Origin: Dehalococcoidia bacterium
GTDB lineage: Bacteria > Chloroflexota > Dehalococcoidia > UBA2979
Length of the DNA: 64,000 nt
NCBI GenBank assembly: GCA_964291495.2
Contig: OZ219871.1
Coordinates: forward strand, 1,152,001-1,216,000
Reading direction: 5' to 3'
The notes under the pieces were generated by a model, which searched no databases, was not told the origin of the DNA, and saw nothing but the letters and a program-made list of their open reading frames with translations. The position numbers and the translations under genes are program-made. Every line of letters begins with the position of its first letter. Within the stretch, counting starts at the first letter, position 1. Positions 6,968-29,961 of the stretch are shown here, one piece after another.

Positions 6968-8023
6968 TCACGCCGCCGGGGCAGCCTCCGCACAGGTCGG
7001 GATCTGCTGCAACTCCGCGACGATTTCGCGCACCTGCGCCTCCTCGTCCGGGTTTCGCGGCTCCACCTCGAGGTTCACGGCCGTCGCGAGGCCGGCGTAC
7101 TTCTCGCGCATCTCCGCGGCGATCTCGTCCCAGCCGCCGATCGCGCAGAACTCCTCCAGCATCTCGTCGCTCACGCGGCTCGGCATCACGTCCCAGCGCC
7201 CTTCGATCGAGAGCCGCCGCAGCTCGGCGGCCGTCTCCTCCAGGCCATGCAGCGCGAGGATGCCCGCGTACGATCCCGTCGAGGAGTAGAACGCGATGCG
7301 ACGCCGCGCGACCTCGCGGGACTCCGCAAGCTCCTCCTCGTCGCGGCCCGTCACGATGAAGCCGCCCGAGCGCACCATCAGCTCGCCGGGGTCTCGCCCA
7401 GCCGCACGCGCGCCCTCGAAGACGCGTGGCAGCACCACCTCGCGCTGATGGCGGAAGCTGCTCAGGGGGTGGATGGCGATGCCGTCGCAGAGCTCGCCGG
7501 CGAGGCGCGTGTTGTAGGGGTTCACGGCCGAGATCACGACGCTGACGTCGGGGTGCTCGATCGGGCCGGGGTCGAAATCGGGGTTGGTCAGGGTGTAGCG
7601 GTAGTACTCGCCCTCGAAGTCCGGCTGGGCGCCGGTCTGCCAGCAGTGCCAGATGGCGCGGATGCAGCGGATGTAGTCGCGCAGCCGCGGGCCGGGCGGC
7701 CCCCAGGGCACGGAGAAGCGGCGCTCGTTGTGCCCCTTCACCTGCGTACCCAGCCCGAGCACGAAGCGCCCGCCCGAGTAGCGCGCGAGATCCCACGCCA
7801 GGTTCGCCGTGATGTAGGGCGCGCGCGGGAAGGCGATCGCGACGGAGGTCGTGAAGCGCACCCGCTCCGTGTGCTCCGCCACCAGCGTGAGCGGCAGGAA
7901 CGGATCGTGCTTCGACTCCGGGGTGGCGATCAGGTCGTACCCGAGGTCCTCGAGGGCGCGCGCCTTCGCGGGCACGTCCTTCAGGTCCACATTGCGGAGC
8001 GCGTGCCAGACCATCATGCCCAT
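6968..8023 (-). CDS. LLM class (probably F420-dependent) oxidoreductase
   Basis: ESKHDPFLPL, AIAFPRAP, GRFVLGLGTQVKGHNERRFS, RRRIAFYSST. Confidence 0.88.
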   Translation of the reverse strand: MGMMVWHALRNVDLKDVPAKARALEDLGYDLIATPESKHDPFLPLTLVAEHTERVRFTTSVAIAFPRAPYITANLAWDLARYSGGRFVLGLGTQVKGHNERRFSVPWGPPGPRLRDYIRCIRAIWHCWQTGAQPDFEGEYYRYTLTNPDFDPGPIEHPDVSVVISAVNPYNTRLAGELCDGIAIHPLSSFRHQREVVLPRVFEGARAAGRDPGELMVRSGGFIVTGRDEEELAESREVARRRIAFYSSTGSYAGILALHGLEETAAELRRLSIEGRWDVMPSRVSDEMLEEFCAIGGWDEIAAEMREKYAGLATAVNLEVEPRNPDEEAQVREIVAELQQIPTCAEAAPAA

Positions 8024-8157
8024 CGGATCACCGCCATCCTCGAAGCAGGCTATTGCGCGCGAATTGTAGCGCCGGGCTGCGCGCAGCCGGACGCGGGCGC
8101 AATTGACGGCCGCGGGCGCGGGGGCTTCAATGATTCACGGGCAGTGCGCCCGCCAGA

Positions 8158-8232
8158 GCCGGTGTAGCTCAGAGGTAGAGCAGCTGTTTCGTAAACAGCA
8201 GGTCGAGGGTTCGAATCCCCCCGCCGGCTCCA
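8158..8232 (+). tRNA. tRNA-Thr (anticodon CGT)
   Basis: GCCGGTG acceptor stem pairing with CGCCGGC; D arm GCTC-AGAGGTA-GAGC; anticodon stem GCTGT/ACAGC with loop TTCGTAA; GGTTCGAATCC T arm; encoded CCA. Confidence 0.96.
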
Positions 8233-8278
8233 GCCCCCACCCCCTCGAACCCAACCGATCGCCTGACCCTCGCGCGCG

Positions 8279-9550
8279 TCACGCCTCGAGGGCGGCGCGA
8301 CGCCGCTCCGCGCCCTGCGCGACGCCGAGCAGCAGCAGCGCGACGATCGCCCCACACGCGGCGAGCACGACGAAGGTCTCGCCGGTGCCCCAGCGCTCGC
8401 TGACGAAGCCCGTCGCGCTGCTCGCCGTCGATCCGACGCCGAAGACGAGCAGGAACCAGACCCCGAAGGAGCGCCCCACCATGCCCGGAGGCGCGTAGTC
8501 GGCGATCAGCCCGTTCATGATCGGCTGCTGCGCCCAGCTGCAGATCGCGAACCCGGTCGCCGCCAGCAGCAGCCCCACGCCGCCGACTCCGCCCATCGCG
8601 AAGAGGAAGAACGGCGTCGCCACCGCGTAGGGCAGGATCGCACGCTCGAGGGCGATGCGATCGCTCAGCCAGCCGCCGGTAACGAGGCCGATCACCGCCA
8701 GCAGCAGCGCCAGCGAGGCCGTCGCGCCGGCGATCGCCTCGGCGTCCCAGCCGAACAGCTCGAGCCCGAGCTCGCGCTCGAGGTGCACCGCGAGGAACGT
8801 CAGCGATCCTCGGTAGATGAAGCCCACGCCGACCGCCGCGGCGTAGAGCACGAGCAGCGGCCGCGTGAACCAGCCGCCCGGCGGGGGCGGCGTCGTGCGC
8901 CGTCGCGCGGGCGGCGTCGCCTGCTCCGTGCGGCCGGACTCTGCCGCGGCCCGTTGCGCCGTCTCGTAGTCCGGCGAGATCTGCCAGACGACGATCGCGA
9001 CGCCGGCCGCCAGCGCCGCGAACGCGACGTAAGCCACGCGCCAGTCGGTCGCGATCGCAATCCCGATCGCCACGCCCGGCGCGAAGGCGATGCCGACGAT
9101 CCCGGCGACGCCGTGCGTGGCGAGGGCGATCCCGCGGCGGCTTGCGACCGTCGCCACCATCGAGATGCCGGCGGGGTGGTAGAGCCCGATACCTGCACCC
9201 AGCAACGTGAGCGAGGCAGCCAGCAACCAGAGGTTCGGCGAGAGCGCGACGACGAGCGCGAACGCCGCCGCGCTGCCCATCGAGAGCGTCATGACGGCCC
9301 TCGGCCCGTAACGGTCGACAAGCCAGCCCGAGGGCAGCGCGAAGAGGCCGAAGGTCAGCGTGCCCGCGTTGCCGACCGCGCCGAGCATCGCGAGGTCCGC
9401 GCCGAACTCGAAGCCGATCCGCACCAGCAGCGCCGCGTACACCAGTTCCAGCGCGTGCGTACCCGCGTGCGCCAGCGAGGTGGACACGATCACGCGCCGC
9501 TCGAGACCCGTCCGTTCGTCCGGCGCCAGTGCGCCCGCCATCGTCGCCAT
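8279..9550 (-). CDS. MFS transporter (Fsr-like)
   Basis: GWLVDRYGPR, GLYHPAG, multiple TM segments. Confidence 0.88.
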   Translation of the reverse strand: MATMAGALAPDERTGLERRVIVSTSLAHAGTHALELVYAALLVRIGFEFGADLAMLGAVGNAGTLTFGLFALPSGWLVDRYGPRAVMTLSMGSAAAFALVVALSPNLWLLAASLTLLGAGIGLYHPAGISMVATVASRRGIALATHGVAGIVGIAFAPGVAIGIAIATDWRVAYVAFAALAAGVAIVVWQISPDYETAQRAAAESGRTEQATPPARRRTTPPPPGGWFTRPLLVLYAAAVGVGFIYRGSLTFLAVHLERELGLELFGWDAEAIAGATASLALLLAVIGLVTGGWLSDRIALERAILPYAVATPFFLFAMGGVGGVGLLLAATGFAICSWAQQPIMNGLIADYAPPGMVGRSFGVWFLLVFGVGSTASSATGFVSERWGTGETFVVLAACGAIVALLLLGVAQGAERRRAALEA

Positions 9551-10452: not shown

Positions 10453-12618
<2,166 letters not shown>

Positions 12619-12642: not shown

Positions 12643-13104
12643 CTACCCGGCGTCGGCGATGGCCTTGACCGCCTCGAGGGCGCCGTCGGGGTGGGCTTCC
12701 ATGTCGCCCTGGTCGTCGATCACCGTGCGCAGCACGCCCTCGGCGTCGAAGACGAAGGTGGCGCGCATCGCCGTCGGCCCCTGATCACGTTCCACCCCGA
12801 AGGTCGCGATCGTGCGGTTCGAGGGCCAGTCCGAGAGCAGCGGGAACTCCGCGCCGATCTCGCGGGCGAACGCGCCCTGGGTCGCCCAGGTGTCGGAGCT
12901 GACGCCCACCACGTGGGCGTTCATGGCCTTCAGCTCGCGGTAGTGCCGCTGAAAGCCCTCCATCTCGCGCGTTCAGCCGCCGGTGAAGGACATCGGGTAG
13001 AAGGCGATGACCGCGATCGCTCCTCGCAGCTGTTCGTCGGTGAAGCGCTCGCGATCGGGGTCGCGCAGCGAGAACTCGGGCATCGAATCGCCTGGCTGCA
13101 GCAT
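12643..13104 (-). CDS. peroxiredoxin (AhpC/TSA, BCP/AhpE-like) with in-frame UGA, probable selenocysteine at codon 44
   Basis: ATG at 13104 after GGAGG; [16 protein letters not shown] stays in frame into the 12643..12963 ORF (VVGVSSD, FPLLSD, RATFVFD). UGA sits at the PxxxTxxC peroxidatic position. Confidence 0.85.
12925..12957 (-). promoter_or_regulatory. candidate bacterial SECIS hairpin
   Basis: mRNA GGCUUUCAGC...GCUGAAGGCC 10-bp stem starting 15 nt after the UGA; alternative inner stem GCGG-CACUA-CCGC. Confidence 0.55.
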
Positions 13105-13138
13105 CGTTCCTCCTGTGTCGCCCGCGAGGGGCGACGGG

Positions 13139-13825: not shown

Positions 13826-13836
13826 CGCGAGGCCCC

Positions 13837-14244
13837 GTGGGCCGGTCCCGGCCACTCGACGTACAGGCTGCGGCGCCCTCGGCCGCGCGCCCCTGCGAGC
13901 GCCTGCGCCGGCGGCGCGACTTCGAGGCGCTGATGCGCGGACGAACGGGCGCACCCCCGGCGCGGCACCGCCTGCTTACGCTGCGCGCGAGGCCGAACGG
14001 CCTCGAGCAGTGCCGCGTCGGCTTCGCGGTGGGGCGACCGGTGGGCGGCGCCGTGGTGCGCAATCGCGTGAAGCGGCGGCTGCGCGAGATCGTGCGGGCG
14101 CTGCCCCTGGCGCCCGGCCACGACATCGTCATCGCCGCCCGGCCGGCGAGCCGCGAGGCGAGCTTCGAGGAGCTGCGCAACGCCCTCGCGAGCTGCGCGA
14201 GGCGCGCCGGGCTTGCGGGCCATGCCGCGGGCGGAAGGGGCTGA
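13837..14244 (+). CDS. rnpA: ribonuclease P protein component
   Basis: [28 protein letters not shown] motif, directly after rpmH. Start uncertain. Confidence 0.92.
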
Positions 14245-14248
14245 GGCC

Positions 14249-14527
14249 GTGCTGAAGCCGTCCAGGCTGCTGCTGCGGCTGATTCGCGGCTACCAGCGGG
14301 CGATCTCGCCGCTGCTGCCGCCCGCCTGCCGCTACGCGCCGACCTGCTCGCAGTACGCCCTCGAGGCGATCGAGGCGCACGGAGCGCTGCGCGGCGTCTG
14401 GCTGGCGCTGAGGCGGCTGAGCCGCTGCCACCCCGGTCGCAAGGGCGGCTACGACCCGGTTCCCGGCCGGGACGGCGACCCTCGCACCGCCCGAACGGAC
14501 CTCCCGAGGGACGCGAAGGCGAGTTGA
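14249..14527 (+). CDS. yidD: membrane protein insertion efficiency factor YidD
   Basis: [23 protein letters not shown]...RCHP...GGYDPVP. Confidence 0.94.
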
Positions 14528-14539
14528 GACGATAAATCT

Positions 14540-15766
14540 ATGCATAACGAACCTCATGCAAGAGTTTTGAGCAGAATCGCAATCCGAGGCCCTGCAGCCT
14601 CTCCCTCCTCTGCTTATGTTTCACGTGAAACATCCATCGTTCGGCGAGGCCGTTCCAGACCGCTCACTGCGCTCCTCGCGCTGCTCCTCGTGCTGCCGCT
14701 GCTCGTCGCCTGCACGACCGACGTGAACAGCCCCGACGGCTGGGCCGGACCCGTCAGGGCCCGCGAATTCACCATCCTCCAGGAGAAGCCCGGCGAACTC
14801 GTCGCGGTCCGCCTCGGCAGTACCGACAATCCCGGCACCCCCGACACCGACGAGCGCGTCGCCTGGCGCTTCCCGGGCGACGCCGATGTCGACCTCGACG
14901 CCGTCTACGCCGACCCGATCCTCGATGGCAACACGCTCTACGTCGCGGGCTACTCGGGCGAGGTCGTCGCCCTCGACCTCTCGTTCGAGCCGCCGCGCAT
15001 CATCTGGCTGCGCGATCTCGACGAGACCATCATCGCCACGCCCGCATTCGACGGCCAAACGCTCTACATCGGCACCGAGGCGGGCGCGATCGTCCCGATC
15101 ACCGTCGCCAGCGGTGCCGTCGGGGCGCCGATTGCACAAGCAGGAGAGCGGATCTGGTCCGAGGTGCTCCTCGAGGACGGCGCGCTCTACGTCGCGGCCC
15201 TCGACAAGCGCGTACGGGCGATCAGACCCGGCGGCGGCACGATCTGGGCCCAGCCAACGGAGTTGAGCGGCGCCGTGCCCGGCGACACGGCGATCGAGGG
15301 CGGGCTGCTGGTCGTCGGCTCGTTCGATCGCCGGCTGCACGCCCTCGACGCCGATACGGGCGCCGAGGAATGGGCGTTCGACGGCGACGGCTGGTTCTGG
15401 GCGCGCCCCGTGATCGCCGGCGACACCGTCTACGCCGCCTCGACGCGCGGGAGCATCTACGCCCTCAACGCGGGCGGCGGCGACTCCAACCGCGTGCGCT
15501 GGCACTTCAACCAGCTCGACAGCGAGATCCGCGCCGCGCCCGTCCTCGCGCGAGGCGTCCTCGTCGTGGCCGCCGAGGAAGCGACGATCTGGGGCATCGA
15601 TCCCGCCACCGGGGACCTCCGCTGGAGCGCGCCGCTGCCCGGCCACCGTTTCCTCGCCAACCCGCTCGTGCTCGACTCGAGCCTGATTTATGCAACCACA
15701 CGAGGCGATCTCGTCGAGATCGACCCGCAATCCGGCCGCGCCGCGATCCTCTACGAGCGGCGGTGA
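14540..15766 (+). CDS. PQQ-like beta-propeller (BamB-like) lipoprotein
   Basis: Hydrophobic signal ending in lipobox LVAC; repeated propeller blades (LYVAGYSGEVVALD, LHALDADTGAEEW, IDPATGDLRW). Start uncertain (ATG 14540 or TTG 14567). Confidence 0.8.
   Translation: MHNEPHARVLSRIAIRGPAASPSSAYVSRETSIVRRGRSRPLTALLALLLVLPLLVACTTDVNSPDGWAGPVRAREFTILQEKPGELVAVRLGSTDNPGTPDTDERVAWRFPGDADVDLDAVYADPILDGNTLYVAGYSGEVVALDLSFEPPRIIWLRDLDETIIATPAFDGQTLYIGTEAGAIVPITVASGAVGAPIAQAGERIWSEVLLEDGALYVAALDKRVRAIRPGGGTIWAQPTELSGAVPGDTAIEGGLLVVGSFDRRLHALDADTGAEEWAFDGDGWFWARPVIAGDTVYAASTRGSIYALNAGGGDSNRVRWHFNQLDSEIRAAPVLARGVLVVAAEEATIWGIDPATGDLRWSAPLPGHRFLANPLVLDSSLIYATTRGDLVEIDPQSGRAAILYERR
14617..14632. promoter_or_regulatory. 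parS: parS centromere site
   Basis: Perfect consensus palindrome TGTTTCACGTGAAACA, extending to an 18-bp palindrome at 14616-14633, ~4.3 kb upstream of parA. Confidence 0.92.
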
Positions 15767-15800: not shown

Positions 15801-17012
15801 ATGACCGACACCTGGCAGCTGCTGCTGGAGACGCCGCTCGTCAACCTCATGGTGCTGCTCAGCGTCGTCTCGTTCGGCTCCTACGGGGCCGCGATCCTCG
15901 TCTTCACCGTGATCACGCGCGTCGTCACCTTCCCGCTGACCATGCGCACGCTGCGCGCCACGCGTGGACTGCAGGAACTGCAGCCCGATATGCAGGCGAT
16001 CCAGAAGCGCTACTCCGACCCGAAGCGCCGCTCCGAGGAGCAGATGAAGCTCTACCGGCGCAAGACACTGGCTTGCGAGGACGGCGGTGTCGCCGCGGCG
16101 GTCCTCGGATACCCGGTTGAGTGCGATTGGAAGGGTCAGGACACCGACAAGGGCGAGCTGTTCGAGCAATACGCCACGCACCTCGAGCGCATGCACGGCG
16201 TGCGCGTCTCCGACGCCTCCGCGCGGCAACTGAAGCGCGCCCGCAAGGCGATGAGCGGCGGCATCAACCCGATCGGCTGCCTCGGACCGCAGTTGGTCCA
16301 GCTGCCGATCTTCATTGCGCTCTTCTCCGTGATCCGGCTCACGCTCTCGCAGTCGCCCGAGGACATCCTCGAGCTCTCGGACCGGCTCTACGACTACGGA
16401 CCGCTGCAGAACGCGATCCCGCTCGAGACCAGCTTTCTGGGCATGAACCTCTCCGCGAACGGCAGTTTCATCCTGGTCATCGTCATTTTCTGCTCGATGT
16501 GGCTCACGCAGCGCATCTCCTCGTCGCGCGCGGCGGCGCAGGCAGGGAGCCAGCAGGCGCAGACGCAGCAGATGATGCAGTGGATGCTGCCGCTGATGTT
16601 CGGCTGGTTCGCGATGTTCGTGCCGGCCGGCCTCGGCCTCTACTGGGCGGCGAGCACGCTGATCGGCCTGGTGCTGCAGTGGGTCTTCGTCGGGCCGGGC
16701 GACTTCACCTGGGGATCGCTGATCCCCGGCTTCGTGCGGACCCGGATCGGGCTGCCCGCGGAGATCGAGACGCGCACCGAACGCGAACGACGGCTCGAGC
16801 GCGAACAGCGCCGGGCCGCCTCCGGCGACCCGGAGGACGATACGGACGGCGCTGAGCCGCCGGGCGCAGACGGCGCCGGCGGAGACGGGGGAGGACGTGA
16901 TGAGCGTCGAGGAGGTAAGCGGAAGGACGGTCGAAGACGCCGTCGAACGGGCTCTCGCCAGGCTCGGGGTGGCTCGCGATCGCGTCGACGTCGAGGTAAT
17001 CCGCGAGGGTAA
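15801..17012 (+). CDS. yidC: membrane protein insertase YidC (short type without P1 domain) with C1-loop insertion and basic C-tail
   Basis: GAAILVFTVITRVVTFPL, ELQP, QMKLY...GINPIGCLGPQLVQLPIFIALF, PAGLGLYW; ATG at 15801 after GGAG. Confidence 0.93.
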   Translation: MTDTWQLLLETPLVNLMVLLSVVSFGSYGAAILVFTVITRVVTFPLTMRTLRATRGLQELQPDMQAIQKRYSDPKRRSEEQMKLYRRKTLACEDGGVAAAVLGYPVECDWKGQDTDKGELFEQYATHLERMHGVRVSDASARQLKRARKAMSGGINPIGCLGPQLVQLPIFIALFSVIRLTLSQSPEDILELSDRLYDYGPLQNAIPLETSFLGMNLSANGSFILVIVIFCSMWLTQRISSSRAAAQAGSQQAQTQQMMQWMLPLMFGWFAMFVPAGLGLYWAASTLIGLVLQWVFVGPGDFTWGSLIPGFVRTRIGLPAEIETRTERERRLEREQRRAASGDPEDDTDGAEPPGADGAGGDGGGRDERRGGKRKDGRRRRRTGSRQARGGSRSRRRRGNPRG

Positions 17013-18039
17013 GCGCGGCCTGCTCGGCTTCGGCGGCGAGGACGCCATCGTTCGCGTCACCACTAAGGGCGACGCGGCAACGCCGGCCCGCGGACGCCAG
17101 GGCCGGCGCGGCGGCAACGGCGGCGGCGGCCGCGACGACGCCCAGCGCGGCGAGGGTCCGGCCCGCGAGGGCCGCGGCGGCGGCCGGCGAGGACGGCGCG
17201 GCGGCCGCGGGGGACGCGGACGCCGGCGCGGCGGAGACCGCGCTCGCGAGCGCAGCGGCGGCGAGAACCGGGACCGCGACCGTGACCGCGAGCGCATGCC
17301 TTTCGAGGGTGAATTGCCACTCGTGCCGGGCGCGCCGGACGACCTGCCGGCGGCCCCGACCGCCGACGCCGAAGACGAGATCGACTTCGCGGGCAGCACA
17401 CTGCGCGAGGTGCTCACGTTGCTCGGGCTGCTGGACACGCAGATCGAGGCGCGCGAACCGGAGACTCCCGGCGACGGCGTGGGCCGCACCGCCCAGGTCT
17501 TCGAGATCACGGGCGACACGGAAGACGCCTCGGACGAGCTCGGCCTGCTGATCGGCCGTCGCGGCGAGACTCTCGGCGCGCTCCAGTACCTGCTCAACGT
17601 GATCACCCGCCACCACTACGGCGAGGCCAACCACGTCTTCTCCGTCGACGTCGAGGGCTACAAGCGCCGCCGCGAGCGCTCGCTCGTCGAGATGGCGCGC
17701 CGCGTCGCCGCCGAGGTGCGCGACACCGGAGACGTGATCACCCTCGAGCCGATGAAGCCGGCCGAGCGCCGCATCGTGCACCTCACCCTCAGCGAGGAGC
17801 CGGGCGTCACCACGGAGAGCGTCGGCTCCGGCAACGAACGCCAGGTCGAGGTGCTCCCCACCGACTACAACGACTACGAGGATGACTACGACGATTATGA
17901 TGAGGAGGCGCAGTACGACGGCGACGAACCCGTCGCCGAGCTCGACGAGGACGATGCCGATCCCGTCGAGGACTACGACGACGCGGGCGACGAGGACGGC
18001 GAGGCCGACGACGAGGACGGCGAGGGGCCGAACCGGTAG
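16897..18039 (+). CDS. jag: RNA-binding protein Jag/EloR (KhpB): Jag_N, KH and R3H domains
   Basis: GRTVEDAVERAL...GKRGLLGFG, LIGRRGETLGALQYL (KH), EPMKPAERRIVH (R3H). Confidence 0.93.
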   Translation: MMSVEEVSGRTVEDAVERALARLGVARDRVDVEVIREGKRGLLGFGGEDAIVRVTTKGDAATPARGRQGRRGGNGGGGRDDAQRGEGPAREGRGGGRRGRRGGRGGRGRRRGGDRARERSGGENRDRDRDRERMPFEGELPLVPGAPDDLPAAPTADAEDEIDFAGSTLREVLTLLGLLDTQIEAREPETPGDGVGRTAQVFEITGDTEDASDELGLLIGRRGETLGALQYLLNVITRHHYGEANHVFSVDVEGYKRRRERSLVEMARRVAAEVRDTGDVITLEPMKPAERRIVHLTLSEEPGVTTESVGSGNERQVEVLPTDYNDYEDDYDDYDEEAQYDGDEPVAELDEDDADPVEDYDDAGDEDGEADDEDGEGPNR

Positions 18040-20749: not shown

Positions 20750-23185
20750 ATGGCGCACGCGCTCGATGGCATCCGCATCGTCGAGGTCGGCGAGGGCAAG
20801 CAGCTCGCCTACTGCGGCAAGCTGCTGCGCGACCTCGGCGCCGAGGTGATCAAGGTCGAGCCGCCCGGCGGCGACCAGCTGCGCCTGCACGGCCCCTTCC
20901 CCAACGACGAGCCGGGCCCCGAGCAGAGCGGCCTCTTCATCTACTTCAACGGCGGCAAGCAGGGCGCGCGGCTGGACCTCGGACGCTCCGAGGACCGCGC
21001 GGCGCTGGGCCGCCTGATCGACGGCGCGGACGTGCTGCTGCTGGGCATGCGCCCTTCGCAGGCGCGGGCGGCGGGCCTCGATCCCGACGCGTTGCTGGCG
21101 AAGCGGCCGGGCCTCGTCGTCGCGACGGCGACGATCTACGGCTTCACGGGGCCCTACGCCGAGTGGCTCGGCTACCCGATCCACGCCTACGCCGGCTCCA
21201 GCGTCGCCCACCGCGTCGGCGACCCGGAGCGCGAGCCGCTCAACGCCCCGCTCGACGGCGCCGACATCCATCACGGCGCGGTGCAGCTCGCGGGCGCGAT
21301 CCTGACCGCGCTGCTGCACAAGGCGAAGACCGGCGAGGGACAGCTCGTCGACGTCGGCAGCCTCGAGGCCTCGAACCTCGCGATCTGGGGTCACGGCATC
21401 GCGCAGATCGTGTACCTCGGCTACCTCACGCCGGAGCGCAACGGCTTCCAGATCAGCGGCGGCGTCTGGGGGGCGTGGCCGACGAAGGACGGGCACTTCG
21501 CGATCATGACGCAGGTGCCGCGGCACTGGCAGGACTTCATGATCGGCCTCGGCGACCCCGAGTGGGCGCACCATCCGATCTTCTGGAAGCTCGGCCACGC
21601 CGGCATCCGGCGCGACATCACGCCCGAGCAGGGCGAGGAGATCCAGCAACTCCTGCGCGGCCCCTTCTCCGAGCTGCTCAAGCAGTGGACCAACGCCGAG
21701 CTCTGGGAGTTGTGCCGCCGCGAGCGCATCGCCTGCCAGCCCGTGCTCACCATCCCCGAGGTCTGCGAGGCCGACCACCCGAACGAGCGCGACTGGCTGA
21801 CCGAGGCGCCGGGGCCGCACCCGCCGTTGCGCGTGCCCGGCCGCCCCTACCACCTCTCGAAGACGCCGTGGCGGGAGCCGGGCCCGCCGCCCCGCCTCGA
21901 CGAGCCCTCGGTAAGCGCGTGGCAGGGCGAGCACCAGCCCCCATCCCCGCTGCGCACGCGAGCGGACGCGCTGATCGAGCCACGCAACGCGGGCCAGCCG
22001 CTCGCGGGCCTGCGCATCCTCGACCTCGGCATCGTCTGGGCCGGGCCGCAGACGATTCGCTTCCTCGCCGACTTCGGCGCGGACGTGATCAAGCTCACCA
22101 CCAACACGCGGCCCTGGATGTCGGGTGTGCGCGGCGGCTCCGACCCCGCCGATCCGATGTCGTGGGAGTGGATCCTGCGCAACCGCCGCTCGGTGAACAT
22201 CGACCTGCGCCACCCGGAGGGGCCGGACCTGGTGCGCCGCCTCGCCACCGTCTCCGACGTGGTGCTCGAGAACTTCGGCTCCGGCACCGCCGAGCGGATC
22301 GGCATCGGCTACGAGGCGCTTTCGAGGGACAATCCCGGCCTCGTCATGATCTCGATGCCGCCTGCGGGCACGACCGGCCCATGGTCGGACCTCGTCTCCT
22401 ACGGCCCGACGCTGACCGGGCTCAACGGCATGAAGGCGATCAGCGGCTACCCCGAGGACGGCTCGATCTCCGAGGAGGCGGCCGAGCTGGACCCGATCGC
22501 CGCCGCCTACGGCGCGCTCGCGATCCTCGCGGCGGTGATGCACCACTGCCGCACGGGCGAGGGCCAGCACATCGAGCTGGGGCAGGCGCAGGCCGGGTTC
22601 ACCGGCCTCGCCGAGGGTGTGATCGATTACACGTGGAACGGTCGCGACGTCGGCCCCGTCGGCAACACGCACCGCTTCCTCGCGCCGCACGGCATCTACC
22701 GCACGGTCGGCGAGGACGACTGGATCGCGATCGCCTGCGACGGCGACGAGCAGTGGCGCACCCTCGCGGGCGTCGCCGGGCGGCCCGACTGGCTCGAGCG
22801 TGAGGACTTCGCCTCGCCCGCGGCGCGGCGCGCGGCGCGACACGCGATCGACGCAGAGCTCGACGCCTGGACGCGCGACAAGGAGAAGCGCGAGCTGGCG
22901 GAACGCCTGCAGGCGGCGGGCGTGCCCGCCTTCCCCGTCCTCGAGGGCATGGAGGTGATCGCCGACCCGATGCTGCGCGAGCGGCGGGCGGAGTTCGAGC
23001 TGCACCCCGACTTCACGGTGGACGAGCTGCTCAACGGCATCGCCTGGCACCTCTCGAAGACCCCGCCGCGGTTGCGCCGGCCCGCGCCCGCCTTCGGCGG
23101 ACACAACGTCGAGGTGCTCGGCGAGTACCTCGGCCTGACGGAGGCCGAGGTGCGGGCGATGGAGGAGTCGGGCCTGCTCGCGTAG
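20750..23185 (+). CDS. two-domain class III CoA-transferase (CaiB/BaiF fusion)
   Basis: Two CaiB-like repeats (LDGIRIVE...DLGAEVIKVEPP; LAGLRILDL...DFGADVIK). Confidence 0.9.
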   Translation: MAHALDGIRIVEVGEGKQLAYCGKLLRDLGAEVIKVEPPGGDQLRLHGPFPNDEPGPEQSGLFIYFNGGKQGARLDLGRSEDRAALGRLIDGADVLLLGMRPSQARAAGLDPDALLAKRPGLVVATATIYGFTGPYAEWLGYPIHAYAGSSVAHRVGDPEREPLNAPLDGADIHHGAVQLAGAILTALLHKAKTGEGQLVDVGSLEASNLAIWGHGIAQIVYLGYLTPERNGFQISGGVWGAWPTKDGHFAIMTQVPRHWQDFMIGLGDPEWAHHPIFWKLGHAGIRRDITPEQGEEIQQLLRGPFSELLKQWTNAELWELCRRERIACQPVLTIPEVCEADHPNERDWLTEAPGPHPPLRVPGRPYHLSKTPWREPGPPPRLDEPSVSAWQGEHQPPSPLRTRADALIEPRNAGQPLAGLRILDLGIVWAGPQTIRFLADFGADVIKLTTNTRPWMSGVRGGSDPADPMSWEWILRNRRSVNIDLRHPEGPDLVRRLATVSDVVLENFGSGTAERIGIGYEALSRDNPGLVMISMPPAGTTGPWSDLVSYGPTLTGLNGMKAISGYPEDGSISEEAAELDPIAAAYGALAILAAVMHHCRTGEGQHIELGQAQAGFTGLAEGVIDYTWNGRDVGPVGNTHRFLAPHGIYRTVGEDDWIAIACDGDEQWRTLAGVAGRPDWLEREDFASPAARRAARHAIDAELDAWTRDKEKRELAERLQAAGVPAFPVLEGMEVIADPMLRERRAEFELHPDFTVDELLNGIAWHLSKTPPRLRRPAPAFGGHNVEVLGEYLGLTEAEVRAMEESGLLA

Positions 23186-23210
23186 GCGCGCGGCGACAAA
23201 GGAGGACGAG

Positions 23211-24002
23211 ATGAGCGACGACGGACAACTGATCATCGAGGAGCGCGACCGCATCGCGTTCGTGACCTTCAACCGGCCCGAGAAACTCAACGCCTGGACG
23301 TTCGAGATGAGCAACGAGCTTCGCGAGTACCTCTGGGGGCTCAACGAGGGCGAGTACCGCATCCGCTGCGTCGTGATGACCGGCTCCGGGCGCGCCTTCT
23401 GCTCGGGTGCGGACGTCGGCAACCTCGCAGCGCGCCAGGGCGGCGAGCGGCCGCCCTGGCGGCCGCCGCACCCGGAGGCGCACATCACCGAGGCGCTGCG
23501 CCGCTGCAACGCGCCGGTGATCGCCGCGATCAACGGCTACGCGCTGGGCATGGGCCTCGGCATCGCGATGTCCTGCGACATCCGCATCGCCGCGGACGAC
23601 GCGCGCTTCCAGGTGGCGCAGATGAAGCGCGGCCTCACCGCCGACACCGCCCTCGCCCACTCGCTCCCCGCCGCGATCGGCGCCGAGCGCGCGATGGAGC
23701 TGATGTTCACCGCCCGCATGATCGAGGCGGACGAGGCGGAGCGGATCGGCCTCGTGCTGAAGGTCGTGCCCGCCGACGACCTGCTGGACGAGGCCGAGGC
23801 GCTGGCGCGCGAGATCGCAAAGAACGGCCCGCTCGGCGTCGCCGCCGCGAAGCGCACGGTCTACCTCCGTGACGACGACGCCTTCCAGCGCGCGCACGAC
23901 TTCCTCGGCCTGACGATGGACCGCCTGTTCATGACCGAGGACGCCCGCGAGGGCATCAGCTCCTTCGCCGAGCGCCGCGAGCCGGAGTTCCCCGGCCGCT
24001 AG
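23211..24002 (+). CDS. enoyl-CoA hydratase/isomerase family protein
   Basis: NRPEKLNA, FCSGAD, IAAINGYALG, AERIGLV. Confidence 0.9.
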   Translation: MSDDGQLIIEERDRIAFVTFNRPEKLNAWTFEMSNELREYLWGLNEGEYRIRCVVMTGSGRAFCSGADVGNLAARQGGERPPWRPPHPEAHITEALRRCNAPVIAAINGYALGMGLGIAMSCDIRIAADDARFQVAQMKRGLTADTALAHSLPAAIGAERAMELMFTARMIEADEAERIGLVLKVVPADDLLDEAEALAREIAKNGPLGVAAAKRTVYLRDDDAFQRAHDFLGLTMDRLFMTEDAREGISSFAERREPEFPGR

Positions 24003-24025
24003 GCGGTGTCCGCCTCCGGCCCCTC

Positions 24026-24401
24026 TCCGGCCCCTCTCGCGGGGAGAGGGCGGGGGTGAGGGGGCTCGCCCGTCGCCCGCTTGCCGGCTCGATCGGTGGT
24101 TGCGCCCCCGAGGGCTCATGCCCGTCGGGCGTCGGACGAGCACGCGCTACGCGCGGCTCGGCCCACCCACCCGCCCCGGATCTTCTTTCCTGTGGGGGCT
24201 TCGCCCCCACGCCCCCGCTGCTGCTCGCCTCGGAGGGCCCGTACGCTCTCCAGGGCCCTTTCCCGGCGGGCGTCGGAGCGAGCACGCTGCTCGGCTCGGC
24301 TGGATTCCGGCCTTCGCCGGAATGACGAAGAGGGGGAAGCCTCACCCGTGCGGGCCCCGATCCGGCCCCCTCTCCTGGGGGAGAGGGCGGGGGTGAGGGG
24401 G
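24026..24401. repeat. composite REP cluster (two family A copies, one family B copy, extra hairpins)
   Basis: Family A at 24026-24063 and 24357-24401; family B CTGGATTCCGGCCTTCGCCGGAATGACG at 24300-24327; GTGGGGG-CTTCG-CCCCCAC hairpin at 24192-24210. Lies between convergent genes. Confidence 0.85.
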
Positions 24402-24481
24402 CACGCCGGACTCGCGAGGACGCACACACGCCCATTGGCCGCCCGGCCCCTCGCTCCAGGGCTCGTGCCGGGCCGCTCTCT

Positions 24482-25279
24482 CTAGTAGTGGATCGCGGCG
24501 CCCGACCCGCCGCCTGTGGCGATCGCGTCGCCGTTGATCGAGATCGACTTCGGGGAGGCGAGGAAGGCGACGACGTAGGCGACCTCGCGCGCGTCGACGA
24601 GGTGGCGGATCGAGTTGCCCTCGGCGAGACGGCGCTCGACCTCCTCCTCCGGTTCGCCCGCCGCGACCCGCGCGGCGATCATCTCCGTCGTGCGCTCGGT
24701 GCGCGTGCCGCCGGGGTGGACGACGGTGACGTTGATGCCGTGCGGGCCGAGCTCGTCCGCCAGGTTCTTCGTCAGCGCGGCCACGCCGACGTTGCGGATG
24801 CTGCCGGAGGTGTTGCCGGCGCGGCGCGCGCCGAGGCCGGAGATGTTGACGATCCGCCCCCAGCCCTGCTCGCGCATGATCGGCGCCACCGCCCGCGCGG
24901 TGCGCAGGTAGCCCAGCACCTTCACCTCGATGTCCGCGCGCACGTGATCGTCGGTCAACTCGTCCAGCGGGACCGGCGGCAGCGCGCTGCCCGGCGAGGC
25001 GGCGTTGTTGACGAGGATGTCGATCCGCCCGAACGCCTCGTGCGCGGCCTGCACCATCGCCTGCACCGAGGAGTCGTCGGATGTGTCGGCGGTCAGCGGA
25101 AGCACGCGGCGGCCGCTCTCCCCGGCGATCTCGGCGGCGGTCGCCTCCAGCGCCTCGCGCCCACGCGCGACGGCTGCGACGTCGGCGCCCTCGAGGGCCA
25201 GTTCACGCGCCACCGCCTTGCCGATGCCGCGGCTCGCGCCGGTGACGATCGCCACCTTCCCCGTCAGCTCCAGGTCCAT
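24482..25279 (-). CDS. SDR family oxidoreductase (atypical, no YxxxK)
   Basis: TGASRGIG, LVNNA; GSIRN occupies the YxxxK position. Confidence 0.88.
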   Translation of the reverse strand: MDLELTGKVAIVTGASRGIGKAVARELALEGADVAAVARGREALEATAAEIAGESGRRVLPLTADTSDDSSVQAMVQAAHEAFGRIDILVNNAASPGSALPPVPLDELTDDHVRADIEVKVLGYLRTARAVAPIMREQGWGRIVNISGLGARRAGNTSGSIRNVGVAALTKNLADELGPHGINVTVVHPGGTRTERTTEMIAARVAAGEPEEEVERRLAEGNSIRHLVDAREVAYVVAFLASPKSISINGDAIATGGGSGAAIHY

Positions 25280-25401
25280 GCCGTGCCTCCCGCCTCGCAT
25301 CGCGCTCGCGCCGCCGCGCATCGTACGCCCCGCGGCGAGGGCCGGTGTATCCTCGCCGCGCGGTGGGCGGCGCGCCAGCGCGGCCGGGGAGGGCGAGGCG
25401 C

Positions 25402-26604
25402 ATGACGACGCAGACACGCGGGCGGGACGCCGTCTTCCTCTCGGGCGTGCGCAGCGGCTTCGGCAGCTTCGGCGGCTCGCTGAAGGACCTCAGCGCCACG
25501 CAGCTCGGCGCGACCATCGCGCGAGACGCGATCGCCGCCTCCGGCGCGTCCGCCGAGGAGTTCGACCACGTCGTCTTCGGCAACGTCCAGCAGACCTCCT
25601 CGGACGCGATCTACCTCGCGCGCCACATCGGCCTCGAGGCGGGGCTGCCAATCGAGACGCCCGCGCTGACCGTGAACCGCCTCTGCGGCTCCGGCTTCGA
25701 GGCGGTCACGCAGGGCGCGCAGCAGATCATGCTCGGCCGCTCGGAGCTGGTGCTCGCCGGCGGCACAGAGTCGATGAGCCAGGCGCCGCACGTCGTGCGG
25801 GGCGCGCGCTGGGGTCTGCGCCTCGCCGCGCAGGCGGAGTTGGAGGACTCGCTCTGGGAGTGCCTCAGCGATCGCTACTGCGGCCTCTCGATGGGGGAGA
25901 CCGCGGACAACCTCGCGCAGCGCTACGAGCTGGATCGCGACGAGGTCGACGAGTACGCGCTCGGCTCGCAGCAGCGCGCACGGCAGGCCTGGGAGGACGG
26001 CGTCTTCGAGAACGAGGTGACCCCGATCATGGTCGGACGGCGCGGCCGCGAGACGGAGTTCCGCGCCGACGAGCACATCCGCGCCGACACCACCCTCGAG
26101 GGTCTCGGGGAGCTGCCGACGGTCTTCCGCCAGGGTGGCGTCACCACCGCCGGCAACGCCTCCGGCATCTGCGACGGCGCGGCGGCGCTCGTCGTGGCCA
26201 GCGAGGACTACGCCGCGGCGAACGACCTCGAGCCGATCGGCCGGCTGATCGGCTGGGCGGTCGCGGGGGTGGACCCGGCGCACATGGGCATCGGACCCGC
26301 GCCCGCGATCCGCGACGTGCTGGAGCAGACCGGCCTGAGCCTCGACGAGCTGGACCTGATCGAGGTCAACGAGGCGTTCTCCGCGCAATACCTCGCGGTC
26401 GAGCGCGAGCTGGGCCTGGATCGCGAGCGGACGAACGTGCACGGCGGCGCGATCGCGATCGGGCACCCGGTCGGCGCGAGCGGCGCGCGCATCACGGCGC
26501 ACCTGCTGCACGCGCTGCGCCGTGAGGGCAAGCGCTACGGCCTCGGCTCCGCCTGCATCGGCGGGGGCCAGGGCGCGGCGCTGATCGTCGAGGCGTTCAA
26601 CTAG
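25402..26604 (+). CDS. acetyl-CoA C-acyltransferase (thiolase)
   Basis: [27 protein letters not shown]: full catalytic set. Confidence 0.93.
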
Positions 26605-26637
26605 CCGCGCATCCGGCGCGGGTTACGTAGCAGGAGG

Positions 26638-27537
26638 ATGAAGATGGCTGAGAGCGGCGTTCGCAGCGTCGGAGTGCTCGGCTGCGGACAGATGGGCGGC
26701 GGCATCGCCCAGGTCTGCGCCACGGCCGGCTTCGAGACCCACGTACGCGAGGCAGGCGAGGAGCCGCTGGAGCGAGGCATGGCCTCGATCCTCCGCGCGC
26801 TCGACTCGGCCGCCGCGCGCGGCCGGCTGTCCGCCGAGGACCGCGCCGCGATCGAGGGGCGGCTCCACCCGACGACCGACCTCGCCGACCTCGCCGCCTG
26901 CGACATCGTGGTCGAGGCGGTGACCGAGGATATCGACCTCAAGTGCGCGGTCTGGCGCGAGGCGGACGCGGCAGTTCAGCCGGACGCCGTCTTCGCCTCG
27001 AACACCTCGAGCCTGACGATCGCGGCGATGGCCGGGTCGACCGGCCGGGCGGACCGCTTCGTGGGGATGCATTTCTTCTTCCCCGTGCCGGCGATGCGGC
27101 TGGTCGAGGTGGTACGGACAGTGACCACCTCGGACGAGACGTTCGAGCGCGCGACGGCGTTCGCGAGCGAGATCGGCAAGGAGCCGATCGCGGCGAAGGA
27201 CCAGTCCGGCTTCACCGTGAACCTGCTGCTGGTGCCCTACCTGCTGGACGCGATCCGTGCGCTCGAGCGTGGCGTCGCCAGCACCGAGGACATCGACCGC
27301 GGGATGCAGCTCGGCTGCGGCCACCCGATGGGGCCGCTCACGCTCTGCGACCTCGTGGGGCTCGACGTACTGCACCAGGTGGCGGAGTACATGTACGCGG
27401 AGCACCGCGAGACGCGCTACGCGCCGCCGCCGCTGCTGACGCGGATGACGCTGGTGGGGCTGCACGGCCGCAAGACCGGCCGCGGCTTCTACGACTACTC
27501 GGCGGACCCGCCGACGCCGCTCGGGCTCGGGGTGTAG
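26638..27537 (+). CDS. 3-hydroxybutyryl/3-hydroxyacyl-CoA dehydrogenase
   Basis: GCGQMGGGIA, ASNTSS, GMHFF, GHPMGPL. Confidence 0.92.
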   Translation: MKMAESGVRSVGVLGCGQMGGGIAQVCATAGFETHVREAGEEPLERGMASILRALDSAAARGRLSAEDRAAIEGRLHPTTDLADLAACDIVVEAVTEDIDLKCAVWREADAAVQPDAVFASNTSSLTIAAMAGSTGRADRFVGMHFFFPVPAMRLVEVVRTVTTSDETFERATAFASEIGKEPIAAKDQSGFTVNLLLVPYLLDAIRALERGVASTEDIDRGMQLGCGHPMGPLTLCDLVGLDVLHQVAEYMYAEHRETRYAPPPLLTRMTLVGLHGRKTGRGFYDYSADPPTPLGLGV

Positions 27538-27549
27538 CACCTCGCACCT

Positions 27550-28836
27550 TCAGCGGGCCCCGGTGGGCTCGAACTGCAGCTGCGGGAGCCGCGAGACGAT
27601 GGCGAAGAGCAGCGCCGCCAGACCGAACGAGCCGACGAACATCACCAGCGCGAGGTCGTAGCTGCCCGTCACGTCGAAGATCCAGCCGGCGACCACCGGG
27701 CTGACGACCAGCCCCGCCTCCTCGATCACGAACATCGCGCCGAGCAGCGTGGCGAAGTGGGCGAGGCCGAACATCCTCGTCAGCAGCATCGCCTCGATGA
27801 TCGGGCCGCCGCCCGTGCCGCAGACCCAGAGCAGCACGAACAGCGTGATGCCGACCGCGCCCGAGTCAAGCAGGAGCGCCACCAGCCCGCTTACGAGGCA
27901 GGCGCACATCGCCATCACCAGGTACTCGAAACGGCTCAAGCGGTCCGCGATGAGCCCGAAGGCCAGCCGCGAGCCGATCCCCAGCGTCGCCATCGCCGAG
28001 ACGATCAACGCCGCATCCGCGCGCGACACCCCGAGCGAGACGTAGAGCGGGATCTGGTGCACCAGCATCCCGAACATGCCGAAGAACAGGAACGTGAACC
28101 CGAACGCGACCAGCCAGAAGTGCGGGGTCGCCAGCGCGGCCCGCAGCGTGAGACCGCTCAGCCGTGATGCGGCCTCACTCGGCTCGACGGGCGCGTCCGC
28201 GGGCGCCCGAGCACCGTCCGGTTGCGCCCCGACGTCCGAGGGGTGGTTGCGCACCAGCAACGTGCCGAGCGGCAGGTAGAGCAGCGAGATCACGACGCCG
28301 GAGAAGATGAACGACGGCCCCCAGCCCAGCGTGTCGATCACCAACCGCATCGAGGGCACGACCACGACGCCACCGAGCGCAAACCCCGTCCCGAGGATGC
28401 TGAGCGCGATCCCGCGCCGGCGATCGAACCACCTCGAGATCAGCGCCTGGAAGGGGATGAAGAACATCATCTGGCGGAAGACGCCGTTGATCGCCGAGTA
28501 GACGTACCACTGCCACAGCTCGCTCGTCGTCGCGAGCAGGCCGTAACTCAGCGCCGTCGTGACCGCGCCGAAGAGAATCACCTCGCGCGGACCGCGCGCG
28601 TCGATCCAGCGCCCGGTCAGCAGGCCCGAGAAGCCGCTGCAGAGCAGCCCCAGCGAGAGCGCGCCGGAGACCTCGCCGCGGGACCAGCCGAACTCATCCT
28701 CGAGCGGCGAGATGTAGAGGCCGAAGGCCCAGAAGGAGACGCCGCTGCCGAGCGCCATCGCGGCGATCGAACCGGCCAGCAACCACCAGCCGTAGTAGAC
28801 CTGCCGCGGCCGGCGCAGCCACAACGGGAGACTCAT
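27550..28836 (-). CDS. MFS transporter
   Basis: YYGWW, GRWIDARGPR, WFDRRRGIA; paralogue of 3695..5026. Confidence 0.9.
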   Translation of the reverse strand: MSLPLWLRRPRQVYYGWWLLAGSIAAMALGSGVSFWAFGLYISPLEDEFGWSRGEVSGALSLGLLCSGFSGLLTGRWIDARGPREVILFGAVTTALSYGLLATTSELWQWYVYSAINGVFRQMMFFIPFQALISRWFDRRRGIALSILGTGFALGGVVVVPSMRLVIDTLGWGPSFIFSGVVISLLYLPLGTLLVRNHPSDVGAQPDGARAPADAPVEPSEAASRLSGLTLRAALATPHFWLVAFGFTFLFFGMFGMLVHQIPLYVSLGVSRADAALIVSAMATLGIGSRLAFGLIADRLSRFEYLVMAMCACLVSGLVALLLDSGAVGITLFVLLWVCGTGGGPIIEAMLLTRMFGLAHFATLLGAMFVIEEAGLVVSPVVAGWIFDVTGSYDLALVMFVGSFGLAALLFAIVSRLPQLQFEPTGAR

Positions 28837-28866
28837 CGCGGTGTCGCGGCGCGCCGCGCTCGCCCG

Positions 28867-29961
28867 CTAGCCCAGCTCGAGGATCGAGCGCCCCGAGATC
28901 TGGCCCGCCTCGAGCGCGTCCGTCGCCTCGTTGATCGCGTCGAGCGGGTAGCGCGTGGTGACGAGCGCGTCGAGGTCCAGCTCGCCCTCGTGGTACCAGC
29001 GCAGGAACATCGGGAAGTCGCGGTCCGGCCGGCAGGAGCCGCCGATGCTGCCGATGTACTTCTTCTCGGCGATCAGCATGTCCCGCGCATCGAGCTCGAC
29101 CGGCGTCTGCGGAACCCCGACGAGCACGGCCGTCCCGCCCGTGCTGCGGCCGATCACGCCCCCGCGCACCGCCGGCATGATCTGCTCCATCGTCTGGCGC
29201 ACGCCGATGCAGTCGAAGGCGTAGTCGACGCCACTGACCGGCTCCCCGTTGAGCCTCAGCTCGTCGGGCCGCCGCGTCAGCTCGTGAATGCGCTCGACGG
29301 GGTCGACCTCGGAGGCGTTGACGCCGATTGTCGCGCCGAAGCGCCTCGCGAAGTCCAGTTTCTCCTCGTCGAGGTCGACGGCGATGATCGGGTCCGCGCC
29401 GACAACCGCGGCGGCGGTGATCGCGGAGAGGCCGACCCCGCCGACGCCAAAGACGGCGACGCTCTCGCCGCGCTGCACGCCGGCGGTGTGATAGACGGCG
29501 CCGGCGCCGGTCATCACCGCGCAGCCGATGATCGCGGTCACGTCCGTGGGCGCGTCGTCCGGCAGCCGGACGACGAACTGCTCGTCTGCGATCGTGTGGT
29601 CCGCCCACGTGAACGTGTTCTGGGAGTGGGCGACGCTGCCGTCGCCGAGCGTGAGGCTGGCCATCTCCGGCAGCCTCGACGCCTCGGGGTCACGCACCAC
29701 CCAGGTGACCATCACGCGATCGCCCTCGCGGACGTGGTCCACCTCGGAGCCAGCGGCGAGTACGACGCCCGTCGACTCGTGGCCCAGCAACTGCTGGCGC
29801 TCCCGAGGACCATGCATCTGGTGCAGCTGCGAGTGACAGACGCCGCTCGCGAGCTGCTTCACCACGACCTGGTGCGGGCCGGGGTCGGGCAGGTCGACCT
29901 CCTCGATGCGCAGCGGGCCGGGGCCCTGCGGGCAGACGACGACGCGGGCGGGAGTGGGCAT
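28867..29961 (-). CDS. zinc-dependent alcohol dehydrogenase (lacks structural-Zn Cys4)
   Basis: GVCHS, GHE, GCAVMTG, GVGGVG. Confidence 0.9.
   Translation of the reverse strand: MPTPARVVVCPQGPGPLRIEEVDLPDPGPHQVVVKQLASGVCHSQLHQMHGPRERQQLLGHESTGVVLAAGSEVDHVREGDRVMVTWVVRDPEASRLPEMASLTLGDGSVAHSQNTFTWADHTIADEQFVVRLPDDAPTDVTAIIGCAVMTGAGAVYHTAGVQRGESVAVFGVGGVGLSAITAAAVVGADPIIAVDLDEEKLDFARRFGATIGVNASEVDPVERIHELTRRPDELRLNGEPVSGVDYAFDCIGVRQTMEQIMPAVRGGVIGRSTGGTAVLVGVPQTPVELDARDMLIAEKKYIGSIGGSCRPDRDFPMFLRWYHEGELDLDALVTTRYPLDAINEATDALEAGQISGRSILELG

Follow-up and report, generated by a model that had tools for sequence, protein, structure and literature searches.

A DUF1059-like domain with a putative metal site inserted at the C1 hairpin of YidC in a Dehalococcoidia clade

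The gene yidC in a 64,000-nucleotide stretch of the Dehalococcoidia bacterium contig OZ219871.1 (hereafter the window; G+C content 71.6%) encodes an ordinary YidC core with a previously undescribed inserted domain of an orphan family, very probably DUF1059 (PF06348), and the insert is confined to one uncultured Dehalococcoidia clade. The inserted domain occupies 16056..16259 on the + strand (protein residues 86–153, 68 amino acids) and is a net gain of 65 residues relative to other YidC proteins. Taken as a whole, the best explanation, to which we assign a probability of roughly 0.55, is that a metal-stabilised DUF1059 domain was inserted at the C1 hairpin and has a docking or bracing role there.

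An extra domain in an ordinary YidC core

The gene runs from an ATG at 15801 to a stop codon at 17010–17012 (15801..17012, + strand) and encodes a 403-residue YidC/Oxa1-type insertase (P0002) of the short form, without the periplasmic P1 domain. The sequence-only reading had named this protein YidC, and profile searches agree: P0002 scores above the cut-offs of both Pfam PF02096 (60KD_IMP; E 5.2e-40, 137.5 bits, cut-off 35) and NCBIfam TIGR03592 (E 6.6e-42, 143.7 bits, cut-off 84.3), each match being split in two by the insert (residues 1–90 and 146/153–296). The two halves flanking the insert align by phmmer with the YidC structures 3WO6, 6Y86 and 3WVF. Residues 5–79 and 153–297 align with 3WO6, residues 27–87 correspond to 247–307 of 6Y86 and residues 153–292 to 308–420 of 6Y86, and in these alignments to 3WO6 and 6Y86 the core helices and the hairpin of cytoplasmic helices CH1 and CH2 are collinear with those of the solved proteins. 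The first part of the protein (15801..16055, +, residues 1–85) comprises the first membrane helix, with R40, followed by CH1 and CH2, and ends in EEQMKLY. R40 is invariant in all 53 aligned sequences and pairs with the Arg of 3WO6 (phmmer), and we take it to be the groove arginine of the first core helix of YidC. The remaining membrane core (16260..16730, +, residues 154–310) is followed by a C-terminal tail that is first acidic and then Arg-rich (16731..17012, +, residues 311–403). P0002 thus shares the five-helix core, conserved Arg and CH1–CH2 hairpin of the short-form proteins (YidC2/SpoIIIJ; 3WO6 from Bacillus halodurans and 6Y86 from Thermotoga maritima), as well as their operon setting with rnpA, yidD and jag. 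It is a member of the YidC/Oxa1/Alb3 insertase family, with an activity predicted from homology.

The insert is preceded by MKLY, ending at residue 85, and followed by GINPIGC from residue 154. About 65 extra in-frame residues had been reported between QMKLY and GINPIGC, and translation of 16050–16262 gives exactly that peptide; the proposed start of the insert at 16056 also stands, whereas its end moves from 16256 to 16259, for a length of 68 residues. Relatives without the insert have three residues at this site, as in LY-REA-GVNP. Among 76 Chloroflexota YidCs aligned with MAFFT (the window plus 75 loci; L059, L065, L074 and L076 of a set of 79 loci were left out as partial or short), the stretch from Y85 to N156 is 5 residues long in 55 sequences, 2 in 2 and 70–71 in 19, with no intermediate lengths. 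Solved YidCs and 57 of the 76 Chloroflexota sequences therefore have 2–5 residues where the window protein has a 65-residue extra domain. The third-position GC of the insert (0.87) is near that of the flanking core (0.95), indicating ordinary coding sequence that is read in one frame with the core and shares its codon bias. The borders of the insert show no direct or inverted repeats.

The insert is real and not an assembly artefact, a possibility that had been raised, because another 40 protein clusters carry the same insert, as do 18 of the 79 genomes chosen to represent species. A word-indexed search with P0002 residues 60–200 returned 87 proteins at E ≤ 0.001, among which 40 clusters at 90% identity (P0003–P0042) cover the insert and are 63–92% identical over their full length. 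Throughout the resulting 41 insert-bearing sequences, the insert is 68–69 residues long. Two further metagenomic clusters (P0043 and P0044) are insert-bearing YidCs that are frame-shifted within or directly after the insert, likely by sequencing error, and P0011 (525 amino acids) combines Jag_N with 60KD_IMP as a fused or frame-shifted form. Other matches, of about 300–330 residues, lack the insert (52 of the 87 proteins aligned). A survey of Chloroflexota had been proposed. In a scan of one genome per species of the GTDB set, with patterns specific to this YidC subfamily, 18 of the 79 loci (L001–L018) carry the insert. These are labelled Dehalococcoidia, Dehalococcoidaceae or Chloroflexi metagenome-assembled genomes, and several belong to contigs or chromosomes of 2–3.6 Mb assembled in different projects. 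The precomputed Pfam labels give PF02096 for all 40 insert-bearing clusters, with Jag_N in addition for P0011, and DUF1059 for none of them; routine annotation therefore overlooks the domain.

Two other origins of the extra residues were considered and rejected. Inteins begin with Cys, Ser or Thr, end in His-Asn followed by Cys, Ser or Thr, and have a splicing domain of more than 100 residues. The insert begins R-R-K-T, ends M-S-G before G-I-N, is only 68 residues long and matches no intein family in the Pfam scans, in agreement with the sequence-only reading on this point. A duplicated hairpin was likewise ruled out by sequence features and by the Pfam result.

A single gain in one clade

In a maximum-likelihood tree of the 76 YidC cores, built by a quick search with the insert removed, the 19 insert-bearing rows form one side of a single branch (Shimodaira–Hasegawa-like approximate likelihood ratio test support, 100). 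One change suffices to explain the presence of the insert on this tree, and none of 500 label shuffles gave as low a count. The gene order rpmH–rnpA–yidD–propeller–yidC–jag–(pfkB)–parA–parB is common to the window and to insert-bearing and insert-less Chloroflexota loci. From the single branch and the shared gene order, we conclude that the insert was gained once, in place, in a positional orthologue of the ordinary yidC. As a separate observation, locus L043, from a ‘Chloroflexia’ metagenome-assembled genome, has two yidC copies about 6.5 kb apart (1261–1904 and 8001–8702), both without the insert.

Relationship to DUF1059

The insert is very probably a divergent member of the DUF1059 family. 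DUF1059 is the top Pfam match for all 18 inserts at E ≤ 1 (best E 1.7e-5 against 24,736 models). On re-scanning 14 of them, 13 match DUF1059 at E ≤ 0.1 and 4 reach the curated cut-off of 21.1 bits (L008, 21.8; L009, 24.1; L011, 21.9; L013, 23.0). An independent language-model search of ESM Atlas ranks three DUF1059 clusters first (scores 0.89, 0.88 and 0.88, with 187, 194 and 175 shared features), a match from language-model features that is a lead only by the tool's own standard. An hhalign comparison of the insert profile with five stand-alone DUF1059 proteins from Chloroflexi gave E 0.0055 with one 9-residue gap, pairing C7 of the insert with C7, C23 with C14, H42 with H33 and H47 with H38. 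When four inserts were aligned with four stand-alone proteins (Chloroflexi, Sinorhizobium and Ruegeria) using MAFFT, the only invariant columns were C7, G11, C23, E34, H42 and H47, and 25 stand-alone proteins from three lineages have the same invariant C, G, C, E, H and H plus one Leu. Identity between the insert and stand-alone DUF1059 proteins is 17–26%. The genes compared include those on plasmids of Sinorhizobium fredii and Ruegeria conchae, the latter annotated as DUF1059. The stand-alone alignment is narrow, with a Chloroflexi query giving two near-identical clusters and a Ruegeria query 138 relatives from one subfamily.

Stand-alone DUF1059 proteins (55–66 amino acids) thus share with the insert the order of the C, G, C, E, H and H residues and their spacing except in one loop. 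The insert differs in being embedded in a 403-residue membrane protein, although its length of 68 residues is in the family range, and in having family scores near or under the cut-off. Its Cys-to-Cys loop spans 15 residues and is hydrophobic, compared with 6–8 residues in stand-alone proteins, and it ends in a basic C-terminal helix. The likeness to DUF1059 proposed by the sequence-only reading holds moderately well: the family ranking, the ESM Atlas result and the shared residues favour it, whereas the window's own copy falls short of the Pfam threshold.

Three insert-bearing loci (L008, 1595–1759; L009, 2131–2295; L010, 2161–2325; all on the + strand) also have, about 6 kb upstream of yidC, a gene for a stand-alone DUF1059 protein of 55 residues (Pfam E 2.6e-10); the window and the remaining 76 loci yielded none. 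The L009 copy adjoins two nitroreductase-family genes and a major facilitator superfamily (MFS) transporter gene. On an Ensifer adhaerens plasmid (L082, 58–296), a DUF1059 homologue is split over two frames and is probably a pseudogene.

Predicted fold and putative metal site

The proposal that the extra residues form a discrete domain is supported by structure prediction. AlphaFold2 folds the insert alone with confidence (predicted local distance difference test (pLDDT) 89.5, predicted template modelling score (pTM) 0.76) in a strand–strand–helix–helix arrangement, with a strand at insert positions 3–6, short helices at 7–17, a strand at 26–29 and helices at 32–47 and 56–65. The four candidate metal ligands are Cys92 (insert position 7; TGC codon at 16074..16076) at the end of strand 1, Cys108 (position 23; TGC, 16122..16124) directly before strand 2, His127 (position 42; CAC, 16179..16181) in helix 1, and His132 (position 47; CAC, 16194..16196) at the end of helix 1 with H-x4-H spacing, all on the + strand. 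Conservation of the two Cys and two His in relatives had been expected, and none of the four varies in any of the 41 insert-bearing sequences; in alignments they fall on the invariant C, C, H and H of stand-alone DUF1059 proteins. From this conservation and the predicted layout, C92, C108, H127 and H132 most likely converge to hold one metal ion, for which zinc is our default guess given a Cys2His2 set.

Two features distinguish the inserted domain within its family. The hydrophobic Cys-to-Cys loop (16086..16118, +, residues 96–106, G-V-A-A-A-V-L-G-Y-P-V) holds about nine residues that are absent from stand-alone DUF1059 proteins, seen as one 9-residue gap in both hhalign and MAFFT alignments. 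Its mean Kyte–Doolittle hydropathy over the 41 sequences is 1.25; G96 and A98 are invariant, and L102, G103 and V106 show conservation of 90% or more. The last helix of the insert (16221..16259, +, residues 141–153, A-R-Q-L-K-R-A-R-K-A-M-S-G) is basic and runs into the GINP linker; its net charge is +3 to +6 in the 41 sequences, with A147 invariant and R148 present in 39 of 41.

The layout resembles that of C2H2 zinc fingers, which likewise place two Cys around a strand pair and then two His one turn apart in a helix. Fingers of that class have a Cys-to-Cys spacing of 2–4. A classical C2H2 finger was rejected: the Cys-to-Cys spacing here is 15, and zf-H2C2_5 matches only 2 of 18 inserts, at a non-significant E of 0.29. 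The ninth-ranked Foldseek match (E 3.1), to a chain of 56 residues in a ribosome entry from Methanosarcina, was dropped, as the one passage found in the corresponding article names DUF5350 rather than DUF1059 (PMC13454478).

Several results weigh against a metal-stabilised DUF1059 domain with a docking or bracing role. The window's own insert scores 16.2–16.4 bits against DUF1059 (E 0.011–0.013), under the 21.1-bit cut-off, and the L001 insert has no match at E ≤ 0.1 among the 14 re-scanned. The Pfam match begins only at the second Cys, at about profile position 11–13, and the 18 inserts are mutually related, so their Pfam matches are not independent. The hhalign comparison weakens to E 0.098 against 25 mixed stand-alone proteins, and a hidden Markov model of those 25 matched no insert at E ≤ 1 in the six-frame window and the 79 loci. 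By sequence, no solved structure in PDB matches the insert or its profile under E 0.5, and Foldseek against PDB gave no match at E ≤ 0.001 (best E 1.8). A full-length AlphaFold2 model from the 41-sequence alignment is poor (pLDDT 49.5, pTM 0.26), too poor to be read for domain packing, with the insert blocks as its best part (pLDDT 68–82). The insert also evolves at about 1.5–3 times the ratio of non-synonymous to synonymous substitution rates (dN/dS) of the membrane core.

The alternative that the insert is an unrelated or newly arisen sequence with a chance C…C…H-x4-H pattern draws on many of these points: the window's sub-threshold score, the weak hhalign values, the failure of the stand-alone model to find the inserts and the missing fold match. 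A search of 1.84 billion representatives with the insert profile adds to them, as it retrieved three YidC clusters at 50% identity and no stand-alone relative; four WD40-repeat matches were rejected as false positives that arose through the repeated ‘LWD..GELL..F.GH...V.SV’ pattern. We nevertheless regard such a chance resemblance as unlikely. DUF1059 leads all 24,736 Pfam models for every insert and passes its threshold in 4 of 14, a language-model search made independently of Pfam arrives at the same family, and the six residues invariant in stand-alone proteins are the columns common with the inserts, in the same order and with the same spacing save one loop.

Position on the insertase and selection

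Alignment to 6Y86 places the insertion point between residues 307 and 308 of the Thermotoga protein, after the last CH2 residue and ahead of the GxNP linker that leads into the following membrane helix. The accessible part of a study of that protein gives C1 as residues 282–308, CH2 as 299–308, transmembrane helix 3 (TM3) as starting at 317 and TM3 to TM6 as 317–424 (bioRxiv 10.1101/2021.07.15.452481). Homology to solved YidCs thus points to a location on the cytoplasmic side at the C-terminal base of the hairpin, after CH2, rather than inside the hairpin as had been proposed. The same source, in the portions available, describes C1 as flexible, as required for activity and as fluctuating near the cytoplasmic bilayer surface (bioRxiv 10.1101/2021.07.15.452481). 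For Escherichia coli, the available text of another study reports that the C1 loop contacts SecY, the signal recognition particle (SRP) and its receptor FtsY, and that YidC without residues 392–409 does not complement (PMC5766551). The earlier statement that C1 gates substrate entry goes beyond these sources, whose accessible text describes C1 as flexible, as needed for activity and as contacting SecY, SRP and FtsY.

The insert is under purifying selection that is looser than that on the core. For the insert, mean pairwise dN/dS inside the two halves of the clade is 0.37 and 0.40, respectively, and comparisons across the halves give 0.50. The membrane core yields 0.12, 0.13 and 0.33 in the corresponding comparisons, and the tail 0.32, 0.75 and 0.69; the two halves differ by a dS of about 0.65 in the insert region. 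Seventeen insert positions and G154 are invariant in the 41 sequences, the invariant residues including R86, R87, K88, T89, C92, G96, A98, C108, W110, Y124, H127, L128, R130, H132, A139 and A147, and E119 is present in 39 of the 41.

These values bear on whether the insert is a tolerated passenger, that is, a stable small domain in a permissive loop that has no function and persists since its clean removal is improbable. The higher dN/dS of the insert relative to the core (0.37–0.50 versus 0.12–0.33) is in line with such a passenger, as are the flexibility of C1 described in the accessible text cited above (bioRxiv 10.1101/2021.07.15.452481) and the restriction of the insert to one clade, in 18 of 79 loci and in three 50%-identity clusters among 1.84 billion representatives. 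We consider it very unlikely all the same, as the insert keeps a constant length, its 17 invariant positions and a dN/dS well under 1 despite the dS of about 0.65 between halves. The clade-specific loop and basic helix are themselves conserved, and the insert sits in the sole yidC seen in the conserved operon.

Genomic neighbourhood

The window operon comprises, all on the + strand, the end of an L34-like open reading frame (ORF; rpmH, ending at 13825), rnpA (13831 to 14244, Pfam Ribonuclease_P), yidD (14213–14527, Pfam YidD), a gene for a BamB-like beta-propeller protein with a lipoprotein-like N terminus (LLVAC; 14540–15766, Pfam PQQ_2), yidC, and jag/khpB (16897..18039; Jag_N, KH and R3H domains). 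The BamB-like propeller gene between yidD and yidC has a tblastn match in 71 of the 79 Chloroflexota loci, mostly in the same place; to our knowledge, it is an unusual member of this operon in other phyla. At its 3' end, yidC shares ~116 nucleotides (16897–17012), which encode the Arg-rich tail GRRRRRTGSRQARGGSRSRRRRGNPRG, with the beginning of jag/khpB, a gene read in another frame. The Jag_N match begins at residue 7 of the ORF starting at 16897, and the third-position GC of yidC drops to 0.43–0.6 within the overlap. Basic C termini are found in insert-less YidC relatives too.

Upstream of the operon, on the − strand, an AhpC/TSA peroxiredoxin ORF (12646–13105) has an in-frame TGA exactly at the expected peroxidatic Cys. 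The 106 residues encoded after the TGA match the Pfam profile from its position 45 onwards, and a hairpin begins 18 nucleotides after the TGA (z −2.58). No Rfam family of selenocysteine insertion sequences was matched at gathering score. The same truncated ORF is present in L009 and L016, and tblastn detects it in every one of the 18 insert-bearing loci as well as in some loci that lack the insert; the gene probably encodes a selenocysteine peroxiredoxin. A katG-like catalase-peroxidase gene (10495–12618, +, Pfam peroxidase E 1.6e-72) also lies upstream of the operon, and tblastn detects it only in the five closest loci, L001–L005. Downstream of parAB, the region 20750–35478 holds three to four family-III CoA-transferase genes together with enoyl-CoA hydratase, thiolase, 3-hydroxyacyl-CoA dehydrogenase and MFS genes, and a LarC-type nickel-insertion gene lies at 36270–37457. 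Across the entire window, only a tRNA-Thr (CGT) at 8158–8232 (+) matches an Rfam family at gathering score.

Proposed role of the domain

The housekeeping yidC of this clade gained a 65-residue in-frame domain, very probably of the DUF1059 family, once, exactly at the C-terminal end of CH2. We propose that this domain, which is predicted to fold independently and whose four invariant Cys and His most likely hold one metal ion, would lie on the cytoplasmic membrane surface beside the opening of the hydrophilic groove of YidC. This pose is suggested because only a few residues separate the domain from a membrane helix and because it has both a hydrophobic loop and a strongly basic last helix. 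Probably stabilised by a metal, the domain may enlarge or stiffen the C1 platform, serving as a docking or bracing surface, and may change the contact of the insertase with targeting partners, the ribosome or substrates. A docking or bracing role is favoured because C1 contacts SRP, FtsY and SecY and needs flexibility, and because the domain is fixed at the CH2 end; considered separately from the rest of the proposal, this structural role on the C1 loop is tentative, and we would put it somewhat short of even odds. We think that the domain is neither catalytic nor sensing.

Lineage-specific additions to the same core are known elsewhere in the family, namely the P1 domain of Gram-negative YidC and the C-terminal extensions of Oxa1, Alb3 and YidC2, which set the partner use of these insertases. 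P1 is periplasmic, about 200–300 residues long and metal-free, and the Oxa1, Alb3 and YidC2 tails are unstructured and basic. The insert, in contrast, is a small folded domain with a putative Cys2His2 site, predicted to be cytoplasmic and at C1, in a protein that also has a basic tail. The nearest working analogy for docking is the C-terminal metal-binding domain of SecA, likewise a small Cys/His module on the protein-export machinery, which is described in the accessible part of one source as coordinating zinc or iron and binding SecB and ribosomes (bioRxiv 10.1101/613315). That domain belongs to another protein, has another motif and is terminal rather than inserted; no relation in sequence or fold between the two was found, nor was one looked for.

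As the sequence-only reading had suggested, the conserved Cys2His2 set could alternatively act as a metal- or redox-sensing switch, in which metal loading or oxidation shifts the pose of CH2 and C1 and so adjusts substrate access or the docking of partners to the metal or oxidative state of the cell. Zinc sites that contain Cys can work as redox switches, and all four candidate ligands are invariant. The domain is also spliced into the CH2 end, a region whose flexibility is needed for activity according to the available text (bioRxiv 10.1101/2021.07.15.452481), and peroxide-defence genes lie just upstream (the peroxiredoxin that probably contains selenocysteine and, in the nearest relatives, katG), a point from gene neighbourhood only. 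Invariant ligands in a compact, confidently predicted fold would suit a permanent structural site equally, and the peroxiredoxin gene also lies beside insert-less yidC operons (L025, L027 and L029), so that it does not track the insert. A sensing switch is thus improbable in our view, and its stronger form, a metal- or redox-gated insertase in which the state of the site switches substrate access or docking to SRP/FtsY, SecY or the ribosome, is slightly more so. If the gated form were true, membrane-protein biogenesis in this aerobic Dehalococcoidia clade would be coupled to metal supply or oxidative stress, and the orphan DUF1059 family would have its first function.

Another possibility is cofactor hand-off, with the domain holding a metal at the insertase and passing it to nascent membrane metalloproteins. 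YidC-family insertases handle subunits of respiratory complexes, and the Ruegeria DUF1059 gene adjoins a GFA-family gene. A DUF1059 gene also occurs among the maturation genes of an [NiFe]-hydrogenase cluster, as the accessible portion of one article reports (PMC9561532). The last two points are gene-neighbourhood anecdotes, and the stand-alone copy in L009 adjoins nitroreductase and MFS genes instead. Full coordination by four ligands within a compact fold usually marks a structural site and not a transfer site, and nothing ties the clade to a particular metalloprotein. Hand-off is the least probable of the readings considered here, and a structural docking or bracing role remains the one that we favour.

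Significance

Few machines of membrane-protein biogenesis are universal; the YidC/Oxa1/Alb3 family is among them, and lineage-specific additions to it set its partners. In the literature searched on YidC, zinc, Chloroflexi/Dehalococcoidia and DUF1059, no description was found of a YidC whose cytoplasmic C1 loop carries a folded Cys/His domain, in keeping with the sequence-only reading, which knew of none, and no functional account was found of DUF1059 (PF06348, IPR009409). If the domain is a mere passenger, it still shows that the junction between CH2 and the following membrane helix accepts a whole domain. If it binds a metal and a partner, the clade would offer a natural experiment on the role of C1 and a first functional handle on DUF1059.

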